Part shown: one piece after another, positions 1,714 to 35,913 of the stretch | How the letters are laid out: the number at the start of each line of letters is the position of its first letter | Position numbering within the stretch: position 1 is the stretch's first letter | Notes under the pieces: generated by a model | The model's database searches: none | What the model was told of the DNA's origin: nothing | What the model saw: only the letters and a program-made list of their open reading frames with translations | From: a virus | Taxonomy: Duplodnaviria; Caudoviricetes | Length of the DNA stretch: 39,832 bases | Strand: one strand, 5' to 3' | IMG/VR virus record: IMGVR_UViG_3300033513_000026 | Coordinates: 1 to 39,832 of that record | Made by a program: the position numbers and the translations under genes

Positions 1714-3609
1714 TCATGCGTATTCCTCTACAATTACATAGCCTACTGAGGCCGCTCCGGGTGATCCTCCACTAACTGTTCCTGCGCCAGTAGAATATCC
1801 TCCACTTCCACCACCTCCCCCGCCGCCATTAGAGCCCGCAGTTCCTGCATTTCCGATTGTGGATGAAGACGCTCCTCCATTCCCCGCACCTTCGCTTCCT
1901 CCTGCTCCTCCATTCCCCGAAGAGGTGCCCGATCCGGGAGACCCTGATATACCCGGATGCCCTGAAATTTGTATATCGCCGCCCGTACCTGTTCCACCAT
2001 TGCCGCCCAATCCCCCACTATACGTGGTCGCTGTTGTCGCTGGCGGTGCTGCTGATCCCGCACTCCCGGCGGTTGCGGAAATCAATGATCCAAAGGATGA
2101 TGTTCCGCCTGATGCGAGAGTTATAGTTTCGGAATTTATTAATGACGCATCAAACATTCCTTTTGCATATCCGCCACCGCCACCACCGCCGCCGCCGCCC
2201 CCACTTGACCCGGCACCGCCAGACGATGTTCCGCCGCCACCGCCAACGCCACCACCGCCTTTCACGGTTACGTTGATTGCGGTAGTCTGCGCAGACTTAA
2301 TCCAAGTAAATGTGCCAGCAGTTGTATATACTGAACGTTTCAGCAATGTACCGGACATTTTCCCGGTGAATGTCTGAGGCTTGCCGTAACTGTACGCTTG
2401 TGTAGCCGTTATATTTCCGCCTGATGTTGTAGCGGTTCCTATCACGACAAGCGGCGTTTCTACAGCACTCACACCGTTACCTAGATACGTCTCCCCAAGC
2501 GTTACGTTTATCGTAATCTGCCCGGATACAACGGATGGAGTTGTTACACTTCCATAAACAATAACAGGAGCTAGTGCGGTAAATGCCGGAGTTAACACAC
2601 CAGCCGCCAGTGTGCAGTATAGGTAAAGAGTGGAGTTGTTTGTTAGTGCAGTCCAAGTGAGTTGAGTAGTGGTCAATCCTACGGAGTTTATTTCACCGTA
2701 CAGGCTATCGTTCCCGGAGTACGCAGTTATAACAAGAGGGTTCTGAATACCAGCCCATGCTGTTTGCGTTCCGGTGCCCGCTGTTGAGAAAGCAATAGCT
2801 GACCCTCCCGGCGTGGCTGATACGTTAAATGCGTTTGTAACCGGAGATAATACATAGTACGTAACCCCGGCTGTCAATGCTGCTGGCAATCCGCCGCCCG
2901 CGTTGGTGAATGAGATAGCTTGATTCGCTACCAGCGTGTGACCTGTCCAGTTCACCACGCCCGGAGTCGCGGCGGTAAAGGTAACGGTCGCAGTTTGGGT
3001 TGTTTCCGCCGCTGCTATATTCTGAGTTGTCAGATTCAACCCGGTAACAGATTGTGGAAGGAAAGACGGCATTCCAGAAATATCTGTCGGGCCTATCAAC
3101 ACTGTATTTCTTCGAGAGGTAATCGCTTGAGCCGAACCCTGATAATATGACATGGAATAATATCCATTTGCCGCAGTGTTTGTTTTGTAAATGATCCCCT
3201 GAGATGGTTGTAGAGAAAACGTGCCGTTAACAACGCTGTCGAGCGTGTCTGTAGCGGTTTGGAGATTGATGTTAACAACACCTGTCCCGTTGTTCTTGAT
3301 ATGGACGATAAACCCAGAACCTACTACGGAAGCGGTAGGAAGGGTTTCGGTTATAGCAGCGGTTACTTCAATCGTCCGCATGTGATCTGATGCGGAAGCG
3401 GTGTCATTAACCGCTACAGTTCTACTTGAAAAGTCTAGAGCGTTTAGAAGTGCCGAATTGATACCTTGGGCAAGATTAAGAAGAGGGTCGCCAATCTTGG
3501 TCTTGTGGTTAGACCATTTGACAAGGTTATTAGCGCCAGTGCTTCCATCGTCAGGAGGAGGACTAGCATTGTAACCGGAGACAAGTTGCGTTGTGTATTT
3601 CGCGCCCAT
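1714..3609 (-). CDS. Tail fibre / receptor-binding protein with C-terminal glycine-rich domain
   Basis: 631 aa, T/A/G/S-rich beta composition; C-terminal 'YTTAGTFTW..VTVKGGGG...GYVIVEEYA' Gly-rich module typical of phage fibres. Confidence 0.8.
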   Translation of the reverse strand: MGAKYTTQLVSGYNASPPPDDGSTGANNLVKWSNHKTKIGDPLLNLAQGINSALLNALDFSSRTVAVNDTASASDHMRTIEVTAAITETLPTASVVGSGFIVHIKNNGTGVVNINLQTATDTLDSVVNGTFSLQPSQGIIYKTNTAANGYYSMSYYQGSAQAITSRRNTVLIGPTDISGMPSFLPQSVTGLNLTTQNIAAAETTQTATVTFTAATPGVVNWTGHTLVANQAISFTNAGGGLPAALTAGVTYYVLSPVTNAFNVSATPGGSAIAFSTAGTGTQTAWAGIQNPLVITAYSGNDSLYGEINSVGLTTTQLTWTALTNNSTLYLYCTLAAGVLTPAFTALAPVIVYGSVTTPSVVSGQITINVTLGETYLGNGVSAVETPLVVIGTATTSGGNITATQAYSYGKPQTFTGKMSGTLLKRSVYTTAGTFTWIKSAQTTAINVTVKGGGGVGGGGGTSSGGAGSSGGGGGGGGGGGYAKGMFDASLINSETITLASGGTSSFGSLISATAGSAGSAAPPATTATTYSGGLGGNGGTGTGGDIQISGHPGISGSPGSGTSSGNGGAGGSEGAGNGGASSSTIGNAGTAGSNGGGGGGGSGGYSTGAGTVSGGSPGAASVGYVIVEEYA

Positions 3610-3618
3610 ATTTAACCT

Positions 3619-4926
3619 CTATTCGTATTCCATTTCTGTCGCTATTCCTACTTCGTGAAGAGTAGGAAGGTCGTCTTCTAATTTCTCGCCAACGTCATCG
3701 CGGCAAATTTTGTTCGGTATCCCGATGTACTTTGCAATTTCGTAAGTTTTCTTCGCCGCATCGCTCACGGTTTTACCTGTGTTTGCTACTACCATCACGT
3801 ACTCGCCCGAGGTCTCATATTCTGTTTTCTTGCCTTTTCTAACATCGCAAAAATGCAAGTGGTCTATGTTCTCTTCGTTTACTCCCAAGATCGGAATTCC
3901 TTGTGCATCTTGGTTTACATGAGTAGTGTAGGGGAAATTTGGTTGGGCTACCACCACTCCCATACATACATCGGTAGACACTTGTAACGTGTCCTCTCCA
4001 TCTATGCAATCAAGCATCCACTGTGCTGGGTCGCCTTTGTGGGTTTCCTGAACCAACAACCAATGCGGCCAGCCTGCTCTAGCAGTGTATTCCAAGAAAC
4101 CTATTTTACCCTTTTTGTTGACAATACAGTTAACCGCTATATCTCCTACGTAGTTTACTGCGTGAAGATATTCCTCGATTGGTTTCAGCATCTCGTCAAA
4201 GATTTTCGACTCTTTGACGTACTGAACTACAGTCCCCATTTCTCCCGTCGCGGGGCCGAAATTGTTAGACATGAGTTTTTTATGCTCAAAGCATATATTA
4301 ATCCACTTCGAGAAACCGCCCGGCCCAAAGAAACACGAAGCTCCCACCTCGATTCCTGGGAAGAACTCTTGCAGTAGAATTTTCCCCTTCATCTTTCCGA
4401 TTCTCTTCCACTTGTCGAAGATATGAATTAGTTCTTCCTCTGCATAGTCTTCATGAGAGGGGACGTGAGTAAGGCTTTTGTCCGCTTCCGTTCCAAGAGT
4501 TTTAACGACATACATCCCGCCGTTTTTCTTGATGTAGTCTTGAGCGGAATTGAGATTATCTACCTCGACATACGGAATCATCTCGATCCCTTTTCGCTCT
4601 AGCAACTGCATAGCAAATTTACGGTCTATCTCAAGCTTACAACCTAGAGTCCCCGCGCCGAAAATCGGAAACCCTTCCTCGATAAGCTTGTCTCTCTCGC
4701 TGAGGAAGTGAGCATTGCCCGTTGGGAAAATTAGATCTGCCCACTTCAACGACGGATGATAGTCGGAGACCTTGGGAACAAGCCCCAACCCTGCCGTGTT
4801 GATTCCTCCGGGCGGGTTTTTGTTGAACATACGGACGTTATGCCCGTAATTCTGGCAACGTAGTGCGAAGTCCGTACCGCATCCGCCTTCAGAGTCAATT
4901 ATCAGGATATTCAATCTACACCCCAC
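3619..4926 (-). CDS. PurD (phosphoribosylamine-glycine ligase)-like ATP-grasp enzyme; probable TTG start at 4914
   Basis: Motifs IFGA..KLEIDRKFA, YVVK, LLQEFFPGIE, FEHKKL..GPATGEMGT and LEYTARAGWP parallel the PurD motifs GPNTGGMG and LEFNARFGDP. Confidence 0.8.
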   Translation of the reverse strand: MGCRLNILIIDSEGGCGTDFALRCQNYGHNVRMFNKNPPGGINTAGLGLVPKVSDYHPSLKWADLIFPTGNAHFLSERDKLIEEGFPIFGAGTLGCKLEIDRKFAMQLLERKGIEMIPYVEVDNLNSAQDYIKKNGGMYVVKTLGTEADKSLTHVPSHEDYAEEELIHIFDKWKRIGKMKGKILLQEFFPGIEVGASCFFGPGGFSKWINICFEHKKLMSNNFGPATGEMGTVVQYVKESKIFDEMLKPIEEYLHAVNYVGDIAVNCIVNKKGKIGFLEYTARAGWPHWLLVQETHKGDPAQWMLDCIDGEDTLQVSTDVCMGVVVAQPNFPYTTHVNQDAQGIPILGVNEENIDHLHFCDVRKGKKTEYETSGEYVMVVANTGKTVSDAAKKTYEIAKYIGIPNKICRDDVGEKLEDDLPTLHEVGIATEMEYE

Positions 4927-13512: not shown

Positions 13513-15487
13513 TACCGGCGTCCTTAAAAGTTGATTCAATCTCGTTTTTGAGTTCGTCTATTAGCTTCTGGACGTTCTGTTCTGTCCTGTCTGTTGCCTG
13601 ATGGTGTTTTTGAGCAATGGAAAGGATGTTTTTAATGTGAGACTCCTTGATCTTCGCCATTTTAGCTGTAAAGTCCAACATCATTTTCTTTTCCTTGACC
13701 GCAGTTTGGGCCTTCTCCTGTTCCAGTTCCTTCGCAAGTTTTTGAACGGTCATAGCCATTTGATTCAGTTTAGCCTGAACATCTGGAGAAATATCTCCTT
13801 GCTTAAGGAATCTCTCTCCCCCTTTAACCCCGGCATCCATGAATACTTGCTTGATTATCTCCATGGGCTCTAGAAGGGGAGCGAATAACGGATTCTTAGA
13901 GATAGCGTCAGCGGTAGCTAAAAACTGTTGCTGACGCCTCATTTCACCCAATACACCCTTAGAGCCTACTACTTCAAAGTGTACGGTATCGGGTAACTCT
14001 GCTCCTGTTACCCTCAAGAAGTCGGGAGAGTCTAATTCCGGGTTGTAGTAGTTATACGAAAAATTCTTCTTGGTCTTGTTCATGTAATGCTGCATATACA
14101 AGAACGTCCTAAGAGCATCATCCAACTTGATAGCGAACCCGAACGGTCCCGCTTCTGAGTCTGCTTGCTTGGTAAGAACTTCCGTCCTTGTGGCCCTGTC
14201 TCCTACCTCTACTCCCGGCCTTCCAAGAGATTCTTTCATGGACGAAACCATGTACTGAAGACCGGCAAGAGTAGATGCAGGATCGCCTACATCCATTGTC
14301 TTGTAGTTTGCAGAACCCTTTGTAGAAGTCTTTGCACCCGGAGCGATAGTAGGGCCGCCATTCAGAACAAAATCAGGGTCGTTCCCGTCATACACGATAG
14401 GCGGACGGGTTTTTAACTGGGCACCGTTTACAAACTCATTCGCCAGAATAGAAGAGATTTTTTGTACCGGGCTTTGCTTGATGAGAGGAGACATGAAGTA
14501 CGGGTCTCGAACGTCCATCTTTTCGTAACCCTTGAAGATGATGGGAGGGTATGGAGTTTCGATTGCATCTATGTAAACCATCTTCCCGTTAGCCATGATA
14601 ACGTGGTAATTCGGGAAAAACATATCATCATCCGAAGGCTCCATTCCATCAGAGCTTTTCTTGATTACTACGTCGCCCCAATACTTGATTATTTCGAGAT
14701 CATAGGTCTTGTTTTCCTTCTGCTCGTTTTCCCTCTTGGGGATTTTTTTCAGTGCTTTGGGAATCCACCCTTCGCCTTTTGCCATTTCAAGGAATTTATG
14801 CCGTGGCATGTATTCCCGAATGAACATTGAGCCGTTATAGAACATATTCGACCCCACCAAAGAAGGGGAGGGGTCGGGCCAACAGTTCCACATCGAATGC
14901 GGAACCCAAACCGGGGAGCATATTTCTTTAGGCTTTACGCCATCGAAATACATATCCATGTAATCGCGCTTCACTTCCGCCACGAAAGCGCCATGATGAA
15001 GGCCTTCTTTAATTGACAGTTCTACTCTCTCGTAGAATCCGAAGTCTCTATGCTGTTGAGTCATTACAGCGCGGAGACGACCGTCTACCATGTCCTGATA
15101 TTTCTTATCTGTCTTTTCTGCTTCTCCGGTTATTGGGTTCAGTTCGGTAGGAATTTCTACATGCGCTTCGAACCAGCTTCGGCTTTCAGGAAAAACCACT
15201 CGCTTAAGGTCGGTTGTCATAATATCTGACGCCCTACCGAGTTCCCCTAGTTCAAACGTCGCCAACCATGTCTTTTCCGACTCCTCTGTGTTGTAGGAAT
15301 CCATTGGGTCTAGAACTACTTGGCGGTCTACTTCCTTCCATTTCGCTTCATGAGAGCGCCTGTAGTCGGAGTTCTTCCGCTTCTCTAATTCTGCCTTTAG
15401 AGACTGTTCAATCTTCTTGTAATCCTTGTCCGTAATCTTACGGGCTTTAACTTCTTTCTCTTCGTTTTCTGCCATGATTAACCCCAA
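13481..15487 (-). CDS. Portal protein
   Basis: 668 aa directly after TerL; 'PIIFKGYE..PYFMSPL', 'RATRTEV' and a C-terminal coiled-coil barrel as in P22/T7-like portals. Confidence 0.85.
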   Translation of the reverse strand: MGLIMAENEEKEVKARKITDKDYKKIEQSLKAELEKRKNSDYRRSHEAKWKEVDRQVVLDPMDSYNTEESEKTWLATFELGELGRASDIMTTDLKRVVFPESRSWFEAHVEIPTELNPITGEAEKTDKKYQDMVDGRLRAVMTQQHRDFGFYERVELSIKEGLHHGAFVAEVKRDYMDMYFDGVKPKEICSPVWVPHSMWNCWPDPSPSLVGSNMFYNGSMFIREYMPRHKFLEMAKGEGWIPKALKKIPKRENEQKENKTYDLEIIKYWGDVVIKKSSDGMEPSDDDMFFPNYHVIMANGKMVYIDAIETPYPPIIFKGYEKMDVRDPYFMSPLIKQSPVQKISSILANEFVNGAQLKTRPPIVYDGNDPDFVLNGGPTIAPGAKTSTKGSANYKTMDVGDPASTLAGLQYMVSSMKESLGRPGVEVGDRATRTEVLTKQADSEAGPFGFAIKLDDALRTFLYMQHYMNKTKKNFSYNYYNPELDSPDFLRVTGAELPDTVHFEVVGSKGVLGEMRRQQQFLATADAISKNPLFAPLLEPMEIIKQVFMDAGVKGGERFLKQGDISPDVQAKLNQMAMTVQKLAKELEQEKAQTAVKEKKMMLDFTAKMAKIKESHIKNILSIAQKHHQATDRTEQNVQKLIDELKNEIESTFKDAGNEQANSPKPA

Positions 15488-17772
15488 TTCGTGTGACGCT
15501 GGTAGCTTACTTGTTTACGAGGTGCAACCGTCATAGTGCGGGCATGACGAAGCATCATGATCGCGTATCGAACGGCTGAAATAACGTCATCGTTCATCTT
15601 TACGAGCTTGCTTATCCTTGCACCATTGGATTCTAATATAGCTCGGTGATACATTCGCTTTTCTTCCATGAAATACTTGCAGGTTTTGAAGACTTTAAAT
15701 CTTCCTGTCTGCATTCTTTCGAGCATTTCCATCAAAGATGCTTCTACCGAATTCCCGCCTTCCCCTTCTTTCTGTCCCGGAGAGGGGGGGTTTGTAGCTT
15801 TCCATGGAAGCATGTTAAGTCCAGCATCTAGATATTGCTGTCGTAACTGAATACCAGTCCCTTTTTCTGTATTCAACCCGTCATGCGGCCACGTAACCGG
15901 AACCCATTCGCCCCATGCATTGATAGATTGGGCGTGTACCACCGGAAGGGCGCGAGTCTCCCGATAATCATTCACAAGATAAACGCAGTCTGATTCCCTA
16001 TCCCATGCGATTTTACCAGCGCCAAATGGGTGATCCCAACCAAAGTCAATCCCTGTAATCTGCGGCCAGTGTCTAGGTATATCGAACGGGTCTATCAATA
16101 TGTCATCGTCTGGAACGTCAAACACTAGGCCCGCTCCCATTAATGGGGAACCTTTAGACCGCATTTCTCTTTCATGCGCCGGAAAGGCTTTTAAACGTTG
16201 CTGTTTGACTTCATCCGTCATGTGGGGGGCATCGTCCCATCCTGCTTGAATGATTGCCTGACCATAAGACAAATTGTTCATAAACCCCGAAACTACTTCA
16301 GTCATGCCTTCTTCGGGGGTTTCTGTGATGTAGAGAATGGAACCAGGCATTGCAAGGCCCATACGTATAAACTGGCTCCAAATCTCAGGCGGGGGTTCTT
16401 CGTCCAACCATCCACCATGAGCACGAATGCCCATGAACTTCTTGAATCCCTGCTCATAGGCTCGTATGTAGACCTTCGACCATCCACCAGTTACGTGTTT
16501 AACTAGGGCGGAATCTATCGCGTTAGGGACCCCTGCCTTTCTGTGCGTCTTTCCGATGCAGTCTATAGGAATCGTTCCAGTCCCCAATTCCTTGTCACTC
16601 ATTGGGTTTCCGAAGAGTTCTTTCTGGACAATATCCCTAGCCGTCTCATTTGTGTTAGATCCAATCATAAACTCGACAGGGTGTAAATACCTTGTTCCCT
16701 CCCACCAATCGGGGTATCTTCCAGTTAGATGAATGGCGGTCTCCATCGCTCCGCTAAAAGTATTGTGGTGAACCAATCCACCAGCAATATAGTTGTGTCT
16801 GTCTTCTACCTCCATATCGTATAGAGTGTGTACGCCAACAGAATAGACTGTTATAATGTTGTTTCCGTCAATAGTTAAAGGAGATAACAATGCCCGCAAA
16901 GAAGATTGTTGACCTTGAGTTGTTTCGTGAACTGTTTTCTCAGGATTTGCAAAATCATAAGATTGCTCAACTTCTTGGCGTTTCTGAACGATGGGTTGAG
17001 AGGTATGCTCGACGCTTCGGCTATAAAAAGACGCGTACGGGGCCGAAATCCGGCGACCGACATACGAACTGGAAAGGGGGGCGAAAACTCGTTGGAGGAT
17101 ATTGGTACATTTATTCACCAGACCATCCAAACTGTACCAAATCAAAGTACGTCCTCGAACACCGCTTGGCAATGGAGAAAAAACTTGGACGCCTTCTTGA
17201 TCGTAAAGAAGTTGTCCACCATAAAGACGGAAATAGCCAAAACAACGATCCTTCAAACCTCGAAGTGTTCCGAACAAACGGCGAGCACCTCTCAGAGCAT
17301 TTTTTAAATAATCCTGCTCAGAGGCAGCGTATCCGGGAAGGAATGGCAAAAGTTGACCTAAAGGGACGTAAGCGCCGCCAGCGGTCAAAATCATATGACC
17401 TTTCGGGCACTCCACCCAGCGGCCATCTGACAGAACAATCCTAAAACATTCCTCTGGTGGCTTGCGTACCCACGCAACAACTTTTCGTGGTTCTTTGTTT
17501 GGGTACGTCAATACATTGCATTCTCTTCCCCATACCTCACTAAGACGCTTTTCTCCCCCGTCAGTTTCTATCTTGACGGAAATAGAGTTGCACTTGCCAA
17601 TCTGATTTCCACCGAGTAGTAGACGCTGAGATGCCGGTAGATTTGTTCCTTTGCCTTTTGCGTTGTGGAATTCTTTCTGCTTTGGATAGGGGGTGTAATA
17701 CTCAAGACGGTGAGTATTCTTGTACCTCTCTATATCTGAGAGTGCTTTTACGATGTCTGAAATGTCAACCAT
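15478..17772 (-). CDS. terL: Terminase large subunit, intein-containing (764 aa precursor, ~487 aa spliced)
   Basis: Walker A GGNQIGK|T split by the intein, Walker B 'WLDEEPP', coupling motif 'ITETPEEG', nuclease 'GIDFGWDHP' and 'DDVISAVRYA'. Confidence 0.95.
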   Translation of the reverse strand: MVDISDIVKALSDIERYKNTHRLEYYTPYPKQKEFHNAKGKGTNLPASQRLLLGGNQIGKCNSISVKIETDGGEKRLSEVWGRECNVLTYPNKEPRKVVAWVRKPPEECFRIVLSDGRWVECPKGHMILTAGGAYVPLGQLLPFLPGYAASEQDYLKNALRGARRLFGTLRGLKDRCFGYFRLYGGQLLYDQEGVQVFSPLPSGVRGRTLIWYSLDGLVNKCTNILQRVFAPLSSSYVGRRISAPYASFYSRSVEHTSQPIVQKRQEVEQSYDFANPEKTVHETTQGQQSSLRALLSPLTIDGNNIITVYSVGVHTLYDMEVEDRHNYIAGGLVHHNTFSGAMETAIHLTGRYPDWWEGTRYLHPVEFMIGSNTNETARDIVQKELFGNPMSDKELGTGTIPIDCIGKTHRKAGVPNAIDSALVKHVTGGWSKVYIRAYEQGFKKFMGIRAHGGWLDEEPPPEIWSQFIRMGLAMPGSILYITETPEEGMTEVVSGFMNNLSYGQAIIQAGWDDAPHMTDEVKQQRLKAFPAHEREMRSKGSPLMGAGLVFDVPDDDILIDPFDIPRHWPQITGIDFGWDHPFGAGKIAWDRESDCVYLVNDYRETRALPVVHAQSINAWGEWVPVTWPHDGLNTEKGTGIQLRQQYLDAGLNMLPWKATNPPSPGQKEGEGGNSVEASLMEMLERMQTGRFKVFKTCKYFMEEKRMYHRAILESNGARISKLVKMNDDVISAVRYAIMMLRHARTMTVAPRKQVSYQRHTNWG
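16849..16883 (+). promoter_or_regulatory. Extended -10 sigma70 promoter and RBS for the antisense HNH gene
   Basis: TG-T-TATAAT at 16849-16857 and AAGGAG at 16878-16883, 6 nt before the ATG at 16890. Confidence 0.7.
16890..17444 (+). CDS. HNH homing endonuclease (N-terminal HTH + HNH_3), antisense within the TerL intein
   Basis: HTH 'KIAQLLGVSERWVERY', 'HTNWKGG', and 'YVLEHRLAMEKKLGR..EVVHHKDGNSQNNDPSNLEVF'; strong RBS. Confidence 0.92.
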   Translation: MPAKKIVDLELFRELFSQDLQNHKIAQLLGVSERWVERYARRFGYKKTRTGPKSGDRHTNWKGGRKLVGGYWYIYSPDHPNCTKSKYVLEHRLAMEKKLGRLLDRKEVVHHKDGNSQNNDPSNLEVFRTNGEHLSEHFLNNPAQRQRIREGMAKVDLKGRKRRQRSKSYDLSGTPPSGHLTEQS

Positions 17773-18007
17773 TCATCAACTCTTCAACTACTCGTTTTGC
17801 CTCTTGTGGGTTGTCTCGACGCAAACATGCGATAGGAGACAGCGATTCCGTTTCGATTGAAAATACATCTATAGGAGCCTCAAACGGGCTTGATTTTGTC
17901 TCTGGATCGTAAGACATAACCACCAACTTACCGCCCATTTGCCATGTGGTGTAGTAATGACCCTCTATTAGAGACTTGTACGCCTTAACGCATTTGCGAA
18001 CTTCCAT
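17765..18007 (-). CDS. Hypothetical protein
   Basis: 80 aa ORF overlapping both neighbours in the operon. Confidence 0.55.
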   Translation of the reverse strand: MEVRKCVKAYKSLIEGHYYTTWQMGGKLVVMSYDPETKSSPFEAPIDVFSIETESLSPIACLRRDNPQEAKRVVEELMNG

Positions 18008-18608
18008 CCCACTCTTCCTTTACCCAGCCAAATGAAAAATCATGCGGCTTGGGGTGACCGTGGAAACAACAAATAGCCGCTTTTAGTGGCATTCCAGTAG
18101 TCGCATGGGCCTTGTATGACACAATCTTGTAGGGAAAAAGGTCTTGCAGCCTCTTGGCGTGTTTTACCTGCTTCTCTATGTAGATTTGATCCCCACCTGA
18201 GATATGAGGACACCCATCTTTTTCGTAATTGTCGGTAATTTCATGTCCGAACCCACCTTTCCAAATCATCATCCCAGATCCATATCCATTGGGACGGTAA
18301 AAATCCCTCAGAATGGCAAATTTGCCGTTGTACTTGTCAATGAAATTGATGTTATCAACAATCAAGGTATCAAGGTCGAAGAAAACAACTTTCCCCTCGG
18401 TAAATTCCTTGAAGAGATATAGTTTTGAATACCATCCTTCACCTTTAATCGGTCTGGTTTCGCACTCTATACCTGTAGGATCGTCGGTAAAGCACACAAA
18501 TTTATGAGGGACGGTCAAGTACCACTCTACTGCCCTGTAAAGCTTGTTGACGTACTCCGCCCCTCTTCCGCAGTAGTTGTTAACTTGAACGCAACAGATT
18601 GTCAACAT
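17985..18608 (-). CDS. Glycosyltransferase, GT-A fold (GT8-like)
   Basis: 'YVNKLY..V..HKFVCFTDD', 'GWYSKLYLF', DxD in 'FFDLDTLI', 'GGDQ' and 'CFHGHPKPH'. Confidence 0.8.
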   Translation of the reverse strand: MLTICCVQVNNYCGRGAEYVNKLYRAVEWYLTVPHKFVCFTDDPTGIECETRPIKGEGWYSKLYLFKEFTEGKVVFFDLDTLIVDNINFIDKYNGKFAILRDFYRPNGYGSGMMIWKGGFGHEITDNYEKDGCPHISGGDQIYIEKQVKHAKRLQDLFPYKIVSYKAHATTGMPLKAAICCFHGHPKPHDFSFGWVKEEWDGSSQMR

Positions 18609-19042
18609 GTAAATACCGCCGTATGGGGAACGTGTTTAGTGTACATTTCTACATTTGAAAAAATTGAGGTTAGAGTATCCCACGGTGTAGTGTCTTTGGC
18701 CTGACTTGCATCGTGCATTACGATTACCTTAGCATGAGGTTTCAACAGGGCGAGTTTTGCCATTCGTCCGGGTGAGTGCTCTTCGTTATCCAGAAAGATC
18801 AATCCGTATTGTCCTTCGAGTTTGTAGTTCGCCCAATCCACGATATGAATGTCTGCAATTTCTCGATAGCGATTAGCCCAGTCAGGATCGGAAGCATGAA
18901 CAGTGAGCTTACTACCACGGTCACGACAAATTGCAGCAAGTATAGGAGTAGAATAATCGCCGCAACCAAGCTCAAGAATATCTCCGGGAGTTTCCAAAGC
19001 AGCTTTGACAAGTGGTTCAATATGAGTAGCATAGGCATCCAT
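18602..19042 (-). CDS. Class I SAM-dependent methyltransferase-like protein
   Basis: 'ILELGCGDYST', 'LIFLD' and 'IVMHD'. Confidence 0.7.
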   Translation of the reverse strand: MDAYATHIEPLVKAALETPGDILELGCGDYSTPILAAICRDRGSKLTVHASDPDWANRYREIADIHIVDWANYKLEGQYGLIFLDNEEHSPGRMAKLALLKPHAKVIVMHDASQAKDTTPWDTLTSIFSNVEMYTKHVPHTAVFTC

Positions 19043-19651
19043 TCAGTTTTCAATCCTCCAAAGCGCTATAGCCTTATCGCAATAATACGGGTGTGGGTTT
19101 CCTTCGTTCAACACTAGAAGCGGTTTCGGGAAGTTAAAAGGATCGTCCATGAGATTGAGCGGCCTCCATCCTCCAGTTTCAATGTCTTCGTTATGATGAA
19201 GAGTAAATGTAGTTGTAAGCAGATATTTTGAGTTTGAGGCGCAGATATTCGCCAGCGCATTCATTGCGTCCTGATATGAAAGATGGACTAGGCAATCTCT
19301 ACAGATTACCAGGTCAACCTGTGGAAGCTTGTCTTTAGTAACGTCCAGAATTTTAAATGACACATCATTAAAATCTGCGGTCAGATAATAAATTTCATCT
19401 ATCAACTCGGGAACAATGTCTGCTCCAATATATTGTATCCCAGTTAGATCAACATGCCGCATCCAGTTGAAGTCACCGCAAGGAATATCAAGAATAGACT
19501 TGATGTTAAGGTTCTTGATAATCTCCGGCAGAGCTTCCCTGAGCCTCTTGGTTTCTTCAAGACTCGATCCGGAGCCGGAAACGGATTCTCCATTGCCCCA
19601 AGCTTTCTTGTGATAGATTTCAGTGAAGATGTTTTTTATCTCTTCTGCCAC
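19043..19651 (-). CDS. Class I SAM-dependent methyltransferase
   Basis: 'ESVSGSGS', 'SILDIPCGDFNWM', 'YIGADIV' and 'DLVICRDCLVHL'. Confidence 0.85.
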   Translation of the reverse strand: MAEEIKNIFTEIYHKKAWGNGESVSGSGSSLEETKRLREALPEIIKNLNIKSILDIPCGDFNWMRHVDLTGIQYIGADIVPELIDEIYYLTADFNDVSFKILDVTKDKLPQVDLVICRDCLVHLSYQDAMNALANICASNSKYLLTTTFTLHHNEDIETGGWRPLNLMDDPFNFPKPLLVLNEGNPHPYYCDKAIALWRIEN

Positions 19652-20613
19652 GATTTCAAATCCCTATATACGGTTACGTTAGGATAAACATGGGACGGGC
19701 CTTCGGGAACATGCCAGTCTAGCTCGTCCACTACTTTATCAACTTCTAACTCGGTTTTCTTGTCTGGAATAACTATCTCGCATTTAGCCCCTATAGAGCC
19801 TGCGAAATGCATTACTGAGGTAGGAACACAGACAACCTTATCCAACACCGAAATAAGCGCCAGAACCCCCTCTATGTCGTTTCTGAGGTCTATATCCGGG
19901 CGCTCTACTTCCTCGGTTGTGTGGTCGTACTGCAACGAAATAGGTTTTTCGATTCCGAAAGATTCGGCAGAGATATAGCCATGCCTTCCCCTCCATGACA
20001 GCCCGACTCTTCCCCGGTATTTCTCGAACTCTTCAACTCTGCTTTTGAGTATTTTAATGAAGGGTCGGCGGGGAAAGTCTCCGGGTCGTCTCCTAAAAAG
20101 AGGGAGGAGGTCAGCAGCAGGTATAAAAGCAGTATTATCACCAAGTAGATCATCTCTCGCGTCGATGTATCTTTCTCTCGCATCTATGCCAAAGCTCCGT
20201 TTGATGATCTCTACTAACCTTCCGTCACAAGCATACGTGACTTTTTTACATCTTACCATTGCCTCGGGGATAAGAGAGGAAAACAACACCTCATCACCTA
20301 TCCCTTGTTCACCTATGATAATCAGACTTTCCGTGTAGTTCCCATCCCAAAACGGTATAGATTTAATCCCATACCGCATTGCTTCGGCCCACTCGTCTCT
20401 GAATTGCCATCCGTCCCACTCGGAATAATTCCCTTGAAGGATTCTAGCACAGCAGAGATTGTGCTTTACTCTCGGGTCTAAACGCTGGTAAACCTCAAAG
20501 TCGTTTTGCTCTCGAAGTTTCTTCTTGAAATGCTGAAGCGTTCGATCAACCTGCAATCTACTTGCGGTTGACGAACGCCTTAACATAAAAGCTACGTCAG
20601 AATAGAGGCTCAC
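19636..20613 (-). CDS. GT-B glycosyltransferase (GT9/heptosyltransferase-like)
   Basis: 'WDG...LIIIGEQGIGDEVLF', 'RVGLSWRG', 'ISLQY' and 'LDKVVCVPTSVMHFAGSIG'. Confidence 0.75.
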   Translation of the reverse strand: MSLYSDVAFMLRRSSTASRLQVDRTLQHFKKKLREQNDFEVYQRLDPRVKHNLCCARILQGNYSEWDGWQFRDEWAEAMRYGIKSIPFWDGNYTESLIIIGEQGIGDEVLFSSLIPEAMVRCKKVTYACDGRLVEIIKRSFGIDARERYIDARDDLLGDNTAFIPAADLLPLFRRRPGDFPRRPFIKILKSRVEEFEKYRGRVGLSWRGRHGYISAESFGIEKPISLQYDHTTEEVERPDIDLRNDIEGVLALISVLDKVVCVPTSVMHFAGSIGAKCEIVIPDKKTELEVDKVVDELDWHVPEGPSHVYPNVTVYRDLKSWQKR

Positions 20614-29517: not shown

Positions 29518-30516
29518 TCATTTAAGTGCGGAGCGGAATAGCTCCGCTGATTTATCGGCTCTTACTCTGTTTCCCGGATGACGTTTGTAAATAAACTCTT
29601 CAAATGCCATTTTTTTGAAAAACGCCGGCTGGTTTCCGTATGCCGCAAGGTCAACATAAAAATCATGATGCTCGCTCCCCCAGCATTCAATATCTCGCAT
29701 GACATAAGGAAGCAATTTTCGGTTACGCAGGAATTCAACCCGTTTCACCGTCTCGGTTAGCGGCATTGCAGGATTTACATACACATAGAATTTTGCGCCC
29801 CACGGCTTAATCCATTGCAGCAATTTAAGCTGTCTTTCTATAATGCGCCTATAGCCCCAATTATCGAACGCGAAAATATATTCGCCCATATAGTTTAGTT
29901 TAAATAAAGCAGCAGAATTTTCCTCGGTTATCAACCGTATATCCAATCCCTGATTAAACTGACACTTGATTTTCCTCTCCGCCAGCCATTCAAGAATTTC
30001 AACGTGGTTTGGAAGTTGAAGAAAATTGTTATCCATGAACTTCACTTTTTTGAACTTGCGGATTATGTTTTCCAAGTCTGCTTCTACTTGGTGAATTTTC
30101 CCCTCTTTTTGCGGGACTACGCACCAATGGCATTTGCGATCACACCCGCGACTAATGAACCCATAGGCCGTATCGTTGTCTGAATAAATTGAGTAATCCA
30201 ACTCCTGTTCGTCTATCTCATCTGGCAACGTTGCGTCCAGACTAATACCTGTGCCACCGAATAAGCAAAGTCCTTTCTGGCTGTAAAGGTCGAAATCAAC
30301 GCAATCCATTGTCCCTCCGAAAATAGCTGACAAATAAACTGCATCGTATCCAGCCGTCGAAATAGTTGTGCGCGTTCGCTTGTCCGGGTAATAGGATATT
30401 CCTAATCTTTTCAACTCCACTTCATCCCCCATTGATTTGTGGTATGAAGATATTTTCATCAGCGCAAGGTTCGGGATTGTTGAATCTACGTCGATCAATA
30501 GAATGCGCAAAGCCAT
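29518..30516 (-). CDS. Radical SAM-family protein
   Basis: 'LIDVDSTIPNLALMKIS' N-terminus, CxxxCxxC in 'SRGCDRKCHWCVVPQKEG', 'MDNNFL' and 'FNQGLDIRL'. Confidence 0.85.
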   Translation of the reverse strand: MALRILLIDVDSTIPNLALMKISSYHKSMGDEVELKRLGISYYPDKRTRTTISTAGYDAVYLSAIFGGTMDCVDFDLYSQKGLCLFGGTGISLDATLPDEIDEQELDYSIYSDNDTAYGFISRGCDRKCHWCVVPQKEGKIHQVEADLENIIRKFKKVKFMDNNFLQLPNHVEILEWLAERKIKCQFNQGLDIRLITEENSAALFKLNYMGEYIFAFDNWGYRRIIERQLKLLQWIKPWGAKFYVYVNPAMPLTETVKRVEFLRNRKLLPYVMRDIECWGSEHHDFYVDLAAYGNQPAFFKKMAFEEFIYKRHPGNRVRADKSAELFRSALK

Positions 30517-33252: not shown

Positions 33253-33783
33253 TCACTTGCTCTTACCCTTCCATTCTTCGTCTTTCTCTAGGGTTTTCTT
33301 GAAATACCATCCAGCCGCGTGATGGTAAATAACGATCCCTTCGGGATTCATAAAGCCAGGCGCTGCTTTGCTCCCGTTTTCTTTGAGATTATGCAGTGCA
33401 TCCGCAATTGCAGACTGAACAAATAGTCCTTCATAAAGCACAGGGACAATTCCGCAGCACTCAGGGCGAGACTCTGACCATTTCTTAGTATTGAACAGAG
33501 AAAACTTCTTTTCTGTTTGTGAATAATTACGCTGGATTCCAGAGCCCCACCATTCTCCGAAATGTCTACCAACACCCAAAGTCATCAATTCGTCTTTATG
33601 ATCGAATGCCCATTTCGCAAATCCGAAGTTGTCGTCTTCCGGCGTAATCCAGCGCGTGCGGGAGCCTACAAAAAACTCTCCATTTTCACCAATACAGATT
33701 TGCGCATTTGTGCCATCAATTTTTTCCGTAATGGTACATTCGCGTGATAACCGATAAATTTTCCCGAACGATTCAAATTCCAT
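33253..33783 (-). CDS. RNA ligase-family nucleotidyltransferase (Rnl2-like adenylation domain)
   Basis: Motif I 'TEKIDGTNA', 'GSRTR', 'FGEWWG', 'FSLF', 'EGIVI' and 'FKK'. Confidence 0.8.
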   Translation of the reverse strand: MEFESFGKIYRLSRECTITEKIDGTNAQICIGENGEFFVGSRTRWITPEDDNFGFAKWAFDHKDELMTLGVGRHFGEWWGSGIQRNYSQTEKKFSLFNTKKWSESRPECCGIVPVLYEGLFVQSAIADALHNLKENGSKAAPGFMNPEGIVIYHHAAGWYFKKTLEKDEEWKGKSK

Positions 33784-34480: not shown

Positions 34481-34711
34481 ATGGATAAAGTAAACCTGTT
34501 CGAGCAACAAGCGCGTATGGATGCCTCAACATCGAAAGCGATAAATGAGATGTTTGAGAGAATCAAGAGCCAGCAGAAAAGGAATAAGCTGTTCGGCTTC
34601 AAGGATTCCACATTTGAATGCCAGTGTGAAAATTCGGGTGAGTGTGATTCATGCGTAGCAAGTCGCTCTGACGAGCATTTTGATCGTAAACGTGATGGAG
34701 AGATGAAATGA
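34481..34711 (+). CDS. Hypothetical protein
   Basis: GGAG RBS before MDKVNLF; C-terminal Cys cluster. Confidence 0.5.
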   Translation: MDKVNLFEQQARMDASTSKAINEMFERIKSQQKRNKLFGFKDSTFECQCENSGECDSCVASRSDEHFDRKRDGEMK

Positions 34712-35913
34712 CAACTAAAGGAGAGAATATGATTAAGGCTTACAAGGGGTTTGACAAGAACCTGCAATGCCGTTGTTTCCAATTCGAGATTGGCGGCGAA
34801 TACACACATGATGGGGAGGTTGAAGCTTGTGCAAGCGGGTTCCATTCGTGCGAATACCCGCTTGACGTGTTCGGATACTATGCGCCAGCCGAGAGTCGAT
34901 TCTGCGAGGTCAAGGCGTCGGGCGAAATGTCACGCCACGAATACGACAGCAAGGTGGCATCGCAACACCTGAAAGTGGTTGCGGAAATCGGGCTGGCTGG
35001 TTTGATTAAAGCCGCGATTGATTACACGTTTTCGCGCACCACGAAAGACAATGGTTCTAGCAGCACTGGGAATCGAGGCGCGGCAAGCAGCACTGGGTAT
35101 CGAGGCGCGGCAAGCAGCACTGGGGATTATGGCGCGGCAAGCAGCACTGGGAATCAAGGCGCGGCAAGCAGCACTGGGGATTATGGCGCGGCAAGCAGCA
35201 CTGGGGATTATGGCGCGGCAAGCAGCACTGGGTATCGAGGCGCGGCAAGCAGCACTGGGAATCGAGGCGCGGCAAGCAGCACTGGGTATCGAGGCGCGGC
35301 AAGCAGCACTGGGAATCAAGGCGCGGCAAGCAGCACTGGGGATTATGGCGCGGCAAGCAGCACTGGGGATTATGGCGCGGCAAGCAGCACTGGGAATCGA
35401 GGCGCGGCAAGCAGCACTGGGGATTATGGCGCGGCAAGCAGCACTGGGTATCGAGGCGCGGCAAGCAGCACTGGGGATTATGGCGCGGCGTCCAGCACCG
35501 GATACCAAGGCGCGGCGTCCAGCACCGGAAACTGTGGCGCGGCGTCCAGCACCGGAAACTATGGCGCGGCGTCCAGCACCGGAAACTATGGCGCGGCGTC
35601 CAGCACCGGAAACTGTGGCGCGGCGTCCAGCACCGGAAACTATGGCGCGGCGTCCAGCACCGGAAACTGTGGCGCGGCGTCCAGCACCGGAAACTATGGC
35701 GCGGCGTCCAGCACCGGAAAGCATTCTGTCGCCCTAGCGTGCGGCTATGAAGGCCGCGCAATGGCCGGAGAAACAGGAGCTATTATACTGGTGCATCGCA
35801 ATGACAACGGCGAAATCGTCCATATCCGCGCAAGCAAGGTAGGCGAGAACGGTATCAAGCCTAATGTGTGGTACGTTTTGGATGCTGATGGTAACTTTCA
35901 GGAGGTTCAATAA
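34708..35913 (+). CDS. DUF7666-like protein with GAASSTGxx solenoid repeats
   Basis: 'KAYKGFDKNLQCR.FQFEIG..C.SGFHSCEYPLDVFGYY' N-terminus, 25 repeats, and C-terminal 'IKPNVWYVLD'. Confidence 0.8.
   Translation: MTTKGENMIKAYKGFDKNLQCRCFQFEIGGEYTHDGEVEACASGFHSCEYPLDVFGYYAPAESRFCEVKASGEMSRHEYDSKVASQHLKVVAEIGLAGLIKAAIDYTFSRTTKDNGSSSTGNRGAASSTGYRGAASSTGDYGAASSTGNQGAASSTGDYGAASSTGDYGAASSTGYRGAASSTGNRGAASSTGYRGAASSTGNQGAASSTGDYGAASSTGDYGAASSTGNRGAASSTGDYGAASSTGYRGAASSTGDYGAASSTGYQGAASSTGNCGAASSTGNYGAASSTGNYGAASSTGNCGAASSTGNYGAASSTGNCGAASSTGNYGAASSTGKHSVALACGYEGRAMAGETGAIILVHRNDNGEIVHIRASKVGENGIKPNVWYVLDADGNFQEVQ
35059..35724 (+). repeat. 27-bp coding tandem repeat, ~25 units
   Basis: Units encode GAASSTG plus two variable residues; two synonymous codon blocks. 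Confidence 0.95.

Follow-up and report, generated by a model that had tools for sequence, protein, structure and literature searches.

A phage terminase intein carrying an HNH endonuclease gene on its opposite strand, and its relatives in uncultured phages

Inteins with an anti-sense homing endonuclease of the LAGLIDADG or VSR-like kind have been published by Gosselin, Arsenault, and Gogarten (bioRxiv 10.1101/2025.01.02.630785), who cite earlier cases in Synechocystis DnaX and Chloroflexus SpoVR from Gorbalenya 1998. We analyzed a comparable element in 39,832 nucleotides of viral DNA (Duplodnaviria; Caudoviricetes; IMG/VR record IMGVR_UViG_3300033513_000026, positions 1 to 39,832), a stretch called the window throughout. 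There, the gene for the terminase large subunit (TerL) is interrupted by an intein, and an open reading frame (ORF) for a helix-turn-helix (HTH) HNH endonuclease lies on the opposite strand within this uninterrupted intein. Like the inteins of Gosselin et al., the element is a full intein with an open, structureless middle and a nuclease ORF on the opposite strand, it occurs in phage hosts (TerL is in their non-canonical set) with signs of horizontal spread, and for both an invasion by a free-standing endonuclease has been proposed. In contrast, the nuclease here is an HTH-HNH protein (HNH_3) rather than a LAGLIDADG or VSR-like one, while their paper lists HNH endonucleases in frame only; such layouts are rare according to the paper, but uncultured phages hold a large family of the HNH kind; and the HNH tail runs over splicing block B in 69 of 81 elements, whereas the splicing domain is typically not overlapped by their second ORFs. 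The word “promoter” is absent from the paper’s main text. The window element would function like the published anti-sense-endonuclease inteins but falls outside their described subtypes. An earlier model-made prediction from the letters of the window (the original prediction) had asked for a check of novelty, and the answer is divided: antisense endonucleases in full inteins are already in the literature (bioRxiv 10.1101/2025.01.02.630785), while our full-text search, whose coverage mostly excluded subscription journals and to which the supplements of that preprint could add, retrieved no description of an intein with an HNH gene on its antisense strand.

Three further systems resemble parts of the element. 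The TerL1-a P-loop inteins of mycobacteriophages (PMC5050341) also sit between the invariant Walker A Lys and Thr and have class 1 termini, but the window intein lacks their in-frame endonuclease, and its host is a Terminase_6-type TerL, for which that paper gives a C-motif site. The ShiLan domain, an HNH insertion in a phage methylase (PMC11855218), similarly hides an HNH ORF over an open host frame and shows signs of homing; however, the ShiLan HNH is described as lying out of frame and being made from the transcript of its host gene, with no splicing domain and no detectable ribosome binding site (RBS), whereas the window HNH is antisense, lies inside an intein, and has promoter-like and RBS signals. 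The I-HmuI and I-BasI enzymes of phage group I introns, which nick near their insertion site (PMC3017599), share the HNH catalytic domain as a weak structural match, but they are intron-encoded, and the window protein has an N-terminal HTH, with the I-HmuI match confined to model residues 55-169.

We consider it probable that the element is a terminase P-loop intein that splices itself out, with an HNH made from its own promoter inside the intein that would nick intein-free alleles, whose repair would copy the element. With more reserve, we lean towards a broader reading, namely a widespread, unpublished two-way selfish element in which the codons of the splicing domain double as promoter and RBS (or leaderless start) of the antisense HNH, and which arose in one founding event and spread across Walker A positions of terminases, helicases, AAA_25 proteins, and clamp-loader-like ATPases.

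The intein itself is well delimited. It runs from Cys1 to His276-Asn277, is preceded by the extein sequence GGNQIGK, and is followed by Thr+1, i.e., its termini are those of a class 1 intein. Empty TerL homologues, about 480 aa long and at most 77% identical to the window extein, align end to end across GK/T (the slash marking the insertion point), and the insert is in frame; this comparison with intein-less homologues had been proposed with the original prediction, and the boundaries predicted there proved exact. In the AF2 model, predicted local distance difference test scores (pLDDT) are 85-95 over residues 1-80 and 73-94 over residues 241-277, but below 50 over residues 90-240, so that the middle models as unstructured while the N- and C-terminal regions build a Hint fold; Foldseek returned 35 matches at E<=0.001 with this model, the listed ones, with hits at E 2e-6, all being inteins. 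His66 and Asp259, at the block B and block F positions, are invariant among 20 inteins, and block B of the window reads PKGH, with Pro instead of the usual Thr of TxxH; class 1 inteins have this His and Asp and no class 3 Cys at F4. Pfam searches of the intein frame yielded only Intein_splicing, at the C end and below the cut-off, and no endonuclease domain. With no Pfam endonuclease, a low-confidence middle, and a ratio of nonsynonymous to synonymous substitution rates (dN/dS) of 2.0 in the intein frame, this is not a canonical bifunctional intein with an in-frame endonuclease, in agreement with what had been predicted. Because of the motifs, the fold, and the essential nature of the host protein, the intein is predicted to splice itself from TerL.

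The ORF on the opposite strand is intact, as had been claimed. Its product matches HNH_3 in Pfam with E 1e-10, above the cut-off, and HNH in PHROG with E 6e-25, while the match to HTH_23 is weak. The structure model has a mean pLDDT of 87; an HTH occupies about residues 1-50, which match HTH domains in a structure search, an I-HmuI-like HNH domain about residues 55-169, and a passive tail residues 161-184, over block B of the intein. Among 95 elements, the active-site-type residues H111, N119, and N123 are present in all 95 and H133 in 94; the conserved His and Asn, together with HNH_3, give the protein the HNH (beta-beta-alpha-metal) motif. It has a single Cys and no CxxC zinc site.

The HNH ORF overlaps intein residues 50-235, so the overlap includes the centre of the intein, where the original prediction had placed it, but also runs through the block B His66. 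HNH codon position 1 lies opposite intein position 1, and HNH position 2 opposite intein position 3. When the HNH was synonymously recoded with the codon usage of the window, a mean of 6.2 antisense stops appeared and the probability of none was 4.5e-4; recoding the intein gave a mean of 6.0 stops in the HNH frame and a probability of none of 1.05e-3. Since synonymous recoding rarely gives zero stops, the double-open frame is not due to chance, and these values come close to the crude estimate of about 1e-4 given before. The two remaining antisense phases are not open, with 526 and 945 stops in 112 elements.

Selection was assessed on both frames, a check that the original prediction had called for, using 18 disjoint pairs, taken from 40 pairs whose nucleotide identity was 66-99.5% in a set of 121 distinct sequences. 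Over the HNH core, the pooled dN/dS came to 0.19 when the bases were read as HNH codons and to 2.0 when they were read as intein codons; in the splicing regions it was 0.17 (N-terminal, 15 pairs) and 0.14 (C-terminal, 18 pairs). The value of 2.0 does not denote positive selection but mirrors the selection that acts on the opposite strand. Compared with its 8 nearest relatives, the window shows an HNH-type pattern in the core, with identities of 0.64/0.73/0.45 at HNH positions 1/2/3, and an intein-type pattern in the tail (0.61/0.40/0.64), where block B dominates. The HNH tail is read-through, because the stop falls anywhere from intein residue 11 to residue 93 (beyond the block B His in the 69 of 81 elements mentioned above). 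Selection is therefore zoned, each protein being selected in its own zone while the opposite frame is merely stop-free: purifying selection acts on the HNH and on both splicing regions, and none acts at the amino-acid level on the antisense peptide. The earlier view that both strands are constrained thus stands for the absence of stops and for each protein in its own zone, but not for the amino acids of the intein over the HNH core, nor for the HNH in its tail. Phe followed by Ile, Met, Thr, Asn, or Lys is found at 0 of 254 Phe in element HNHs versus 11 of 43 in free-standing relatives; this avoidance arises because the intein frame must stay open, and is a cost to the HNH rather than independent evidence.

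Candidate expression signals for the HNH lie within the C-terminal codons of the intein. The window has an extended -10 box reading TG-T-TATAAT, 32 nt 5' of the HNH ATG, and a Shine-Dalgarno-like word. Promoter-likeness was scored with E. coli sigma-70 weights, the null being recodings that preserve the intein protein. The score was above the null mean in 97 of 109 elements and at p<=0.05 in 55 of the 109; with a fixed 126-nt region, 58 of 112 elements reached p<=0.05, as opposed to 6/112 for the sense strand, 2/108 for the adjacent extein, and 0/6 for mini-inteins, all counts being of related elements and hence not of independent events. The motif could be placed in 38 elements; of these, 31 have A at the end of the second box codon, against a background of 21%, and 31 have T at the end of the first, against an Ile background of 38%. 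Across the family we see a strong excess of promoter-like sequence. Shine-Dalgarno matches of at least 4 nt occur in 82 of 109 elements, a figure biased by starts having been picked by Shine-Dalgarno score. Five elements (L055, L064, L068, L082, and L155) instead lack a Shine-Dalgarno word and have TTGACA together with a -10-like box that lies 6-9 nt 5' of the ATG, which suggests that this subgroup may be translated from leaderless mRNA. A hairpin right after the HNH stop (~17456-17518, z -3.2 in the window) was rejected as a terminator of the family, the mean z being 0.05 in 94 elements and the window value -0.8 relative to recoding.

The element is one of many. HNH- and intein-based scans led to 188 fetched loci, a sample weighted to close relatives, since the two large scans took the best 80 of 533 and the best 80 of 439 matches. 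Four duplicates were removed, as were two loci that gave no profile hit; of the 182 that remained, 155 have the antisense frame open in the phase of the window; among near full-length HNH hits, duplicates included, 149 of 153 have an open antisense frame, in a single phase. The C end of the intein was recognized in 146 of the 155 loci, giving 113 clusters at 90% HNH identity. These 113 elements are inserted at GK/ (40), just before the S/T/C-x-K of the P-loop (53), at /TGxGK (8), or at other or unclear positions (12). Thirty C-exteins were tested; matches were to Terminase_6N, Terminase_3, AAA_34, SNF2, AAA_25, clamp-loader-like proteins, and Helicase_C, and 11 of the 30 had no Pfam hit. A scan blind to the HNH, based on the C-terminal motif of the intein and confirmed with the window’s intein, which may favour similar elements, returned 69 loci (8 incomplete, 5 duplicates); of the 56 complete, distinct inteins, 48, counting that of the window, have an antisense HNH, 1 has an HNH that is broken, and the other 7 are mini-inteins, no further type being seen. 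In cultured phages, tblastn with the intein gave 0 matches in 50,697 records, and with the HNH 116 records matched, none covering 80% of the query.

Some loci depart from the common layout. A TerL-like protein has an intein at HQY/T (L012, 1841-4141, minus strand) with an antisense HNH (2977-3630, plus strand) in the same phase, whose HNH domain is near the N-terminus. Another locus (L166:1759-3012, plus strand) has an open host frame of 1126 aa, within which an antisense HNH of 418 aa with many additional HTH-like repeats makes a much longer double-open stretch. A DNA-polymerase-I-like protein, its family judged by eye (L021:2152-4371, plus strand), has an intein with an in-frame HNH of the same broad type.

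The distribution looks mobile, as the original prediction had supposed of the intein. Among the 120 TerL homologues listed of 420 found, 11 including the window have a 270-290-aa insert at the same site, 1 has a 135-aa mini-intein, 1 has a LAGLIDADG-type intein elsewhere, and the others are about 480 aa long. For the 10 long-insert proteins other than the window, DNA was at hand for two (matching L270 and L104 by their flanks), and we infer an antisense HNH in the remaining ones. A close relative with 64% extein identity (P0029) is empty at GK/T and has a LAGLIDADG-type intein just before its DEE motif. The window extein has an empty allele as its sister (P0002, 77%), and all of the 39 exteins nearest to it (60-77%) are empty at GK/T; a separate TerL scan of 79 other loci, whose ranking may favour empty ones, gave 68 empty, 0 occupied, and 11 unreadable. 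The splicing domain of the window is 69% identical to that of P0003 (extein 53%), 64% to L115 (39%), and 63% to L105 (25%), but only 32-37% to P0019, P0026, and P0033, despite exteins of 54-58%; over all pairs, rho between intein and extein identity is 0.15, with very distant exteins possibly misaligned. Because the closest terminases are empty and intein and extein identities are nearly uncoupled, the pattern fits a mobile element that has spread horizontally; the window intein is nested among empty alleles, and a distribution indicative of horizontal invasion is shared with the published anti-sense-endonuclease inteins. Sister HNHs (support 0.999) are found at sites three codons apart, GK/T in L033 and NQ/SGK in L038.

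Gain and loss of the HNH can be partly followed. Free-standing HTH-HNH relatives (L079, L080, L167, and L184) are possible donors, but the HNH tree, in which free-standing sequences that are short and partial stand alongside elements, is not strong enough to identify a donor or a root. One of these genes (L080:2956-3501, plus strand) has no intein motifs, yet its antisense frame is open in the element’s phase; it could be an escaped copy or a donor-like gene. A mini-intein of 141 aa (L323:420-842) is 85% identical to L030 and sister to L029 and L030 (support 1.0), and its antisense strand retains a Shine-Dalgarno-like word followed directly by an HNH C-terminal remnant, which shows it to be a deletion derivative of the L029/L030 type. 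Related mini-inteins accordingly look derived by loss, not ancestral. The original prediction that a free-standing HNH gene invaded a mini-intein backwards therefore keeps its possible donors, while the invasion is old, being shared by more than 100 elements, and the related mini-inteins do not look like its starting point. In another locus (L049:2435-3088, plus strand; L049/L308), a stop lies inside the antisense HNH while the intein frame is open, through decay or sequencing error.

Under our preferred reading, the terL mRNA would be read through about 150 antisense-derived filler residues, and the class 1 domain would excise itself and restore GK-T. A host sigma-70-type polymerase may initiate an antisense transcript in the C-terminal codons of the intein, as the sequence statistics suggest, to be translated from a Shine-Dalgarno word in most members and leaderless in the subgroup. 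By analogy with I-HmuI, the HTH-HNH protein might then, during a mixed infection, nick an empty allele close to its Walker A codons, and the intein would be copied in by gene conversion at the nicked allele. A promoter in the splicing codons would let the nuclease be made apart from the timing and splicing of the host gene and leave it free for retargeting. Because the relative phase is constant across the family, it was probably founded once, long ago, when a free-standing HTH-HNH gene was inserted backwards into the endonuclease loop of an intein; later moves would have taken it between nearby P-loop positions and ATPase genes, with occasional decay to a mini-intein.

We would like to note several points that weigh against this reading. 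The dN/dS pairs exclude the window, which lacks a close enough partner. Its promoter taken alone is not significant against recoding (p=0.06), and a simple sigma-70 scan of 16600-17900 found no two-hexamer promoter. The resemblance to I-HmuI is weak by every method, with E 0.086 in Foldseek (although the top row), Z 5.7 and rmsd 6.5 over 107 aligned residues in VIA, and E 0.056 by profile, which makes nicking an analogy. About 150 residues of shifting filler could slow splicing. A single origin is likely but not proven, since identities of the splicing domain and the HNH are only moderately correlated (rho 0.54; nearest neighbour shared in 53 of 95), and the HQY/T element, with its differing domain order, is possibly of independent origin. 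Finally, a PNWT-type motif present in 89 of 113 elements is gone from the window HNH through a 5-residue deletion, and for this reason the window copy may be retargeted or weakened.

That deletion gives reason to consider that, in a family otherwise as described, the window HNH may have been weakened or lost its activity recently and be a relic that its intein carries with it, and decay is indeed known in the family from the stop in L049/L308 and from the 7 mini-inteins. We nevertheless think this unlikely: the ORF is intact and has a promoter-like box and a Shine-Dalgarno word, its core retains the HNH-type codon pattern (0.64/0.73/0.45), and the deletion is shared with L002 and L270, of which the L002 HNH is only 55% identical yet open, so the deleted form is long-lasting. 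It is also conceivable, if distinctly improbable, that the HNH is an independent selfish gene that shelters in the intein and cuts elsewhere (trans or collaborative homing) rather than at the empty Walker A site. Free-standing relatives exist, and the several sites and genes occupied go beyond one fixed specificity; however, the HNH is inside an intein in 149 of 153 loci, its kinship partly tracks insertion-site and host groups, and the spread of the intein among empty alleles requires a nuclease aimed at or near the site.

HNH genes lie beside terminase genes in many phages (PMC3592412), which raises the idea of a domesticated accessory nuclease for genome-end cleavage, with the overlap as genome compaction. 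We regard this as very improbable, given that most close terminases have no insert, that AAA_34, SNF2, AAA_25, and clamp-loader-like proteins carry the element too, and that the protein is of the HNH_3 type, with its single Cys and no CxxC zinc site. Removal of the insert as RNA (an intron), or an artefact of assembly or annotation, is hardly credible for an in-frame insert whose intein motifs are complete and under purifying selection, which models as a Hint fold, and whose layout recurs in more than 100 independent contigs.

Antisense intein endonucleases were regarded as rare, but for one large intein lineage of uncultured phages the HNH form is the norm (48 of 56 complete inteins in the HNH-blind scan), and gene callers will miss the antisense HNH or label the element a decayed intein. 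The family offers a testable model for antisense expression of a homing gene via a promoter in splicing-domain codons, and bears on the gain and loss of endonucleases by inteins and on how two genes zone one sequence, with one frame selected per zone. If the broader two-way reading is true, the family would be an example, extant and on a large scale, of the “splicing first, endonuclease later” route. The tolerance of the splicing domains for at least about 150 residues of freely changing filler may be useful in protein engineering.

Table 1. Coordinates in the window of the terminase gene, its intein, and the antisense HNH gene.
Feature	Position	Strand	Description	Basis
TerL gene	15478..17772	-	764-aa precursor; 487 aa without intein	ORF list; Pfam Terminase_6N + 6C; empty homologues
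Class 1 intein, 277 aa	16762..17592	-	between Walker A Lys and Thr (GK/T)	boundaries, empty-allele alignment, Hint fold
N-terminal splicing region	17338..17592	-	~residues 1-85, Cys1 and block B His66	
Antisense-derived intein middle	16873..17325	-	residues 90-240; open, unconstrained, low-confidence model	
C-terminal splicing region	16762..16872	-	residues 241-277, block F Asp259, His276-Asn277	
HTH-HNH endonuclease gene	16890..17444	+	184 aa, intact ORF antisense inside intein	
Predicted extended -10 promoter TG-n-TATAAT	16849..16857	+	antisense to Ile246-Ile247-Thr248	sequence
Shine-Dalgarno-like AAAGGAG	16877..16883	+	6 nt 5' of HNH ATG	sequence

The window as a whole resembles the genome of a tailed phage in its gene content, which includes capsid, portal-like, terminase, replication, and recombination genes. 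A cluster of glycosyltransferase-like and methyltransferase-like genes, per PHROG, lies directly upstream of terL (17985-20613, minus strand) and possibly serves virion or DNA modification. A radical SAM protein (29518-30516, minus strand) and an RNA ligase-like protein (33253-33783, minus strand) are also encoded, and a 401-aa protein with tail-fibre-like similarity (34708-35913, plus strand) lies among the recombination genes.

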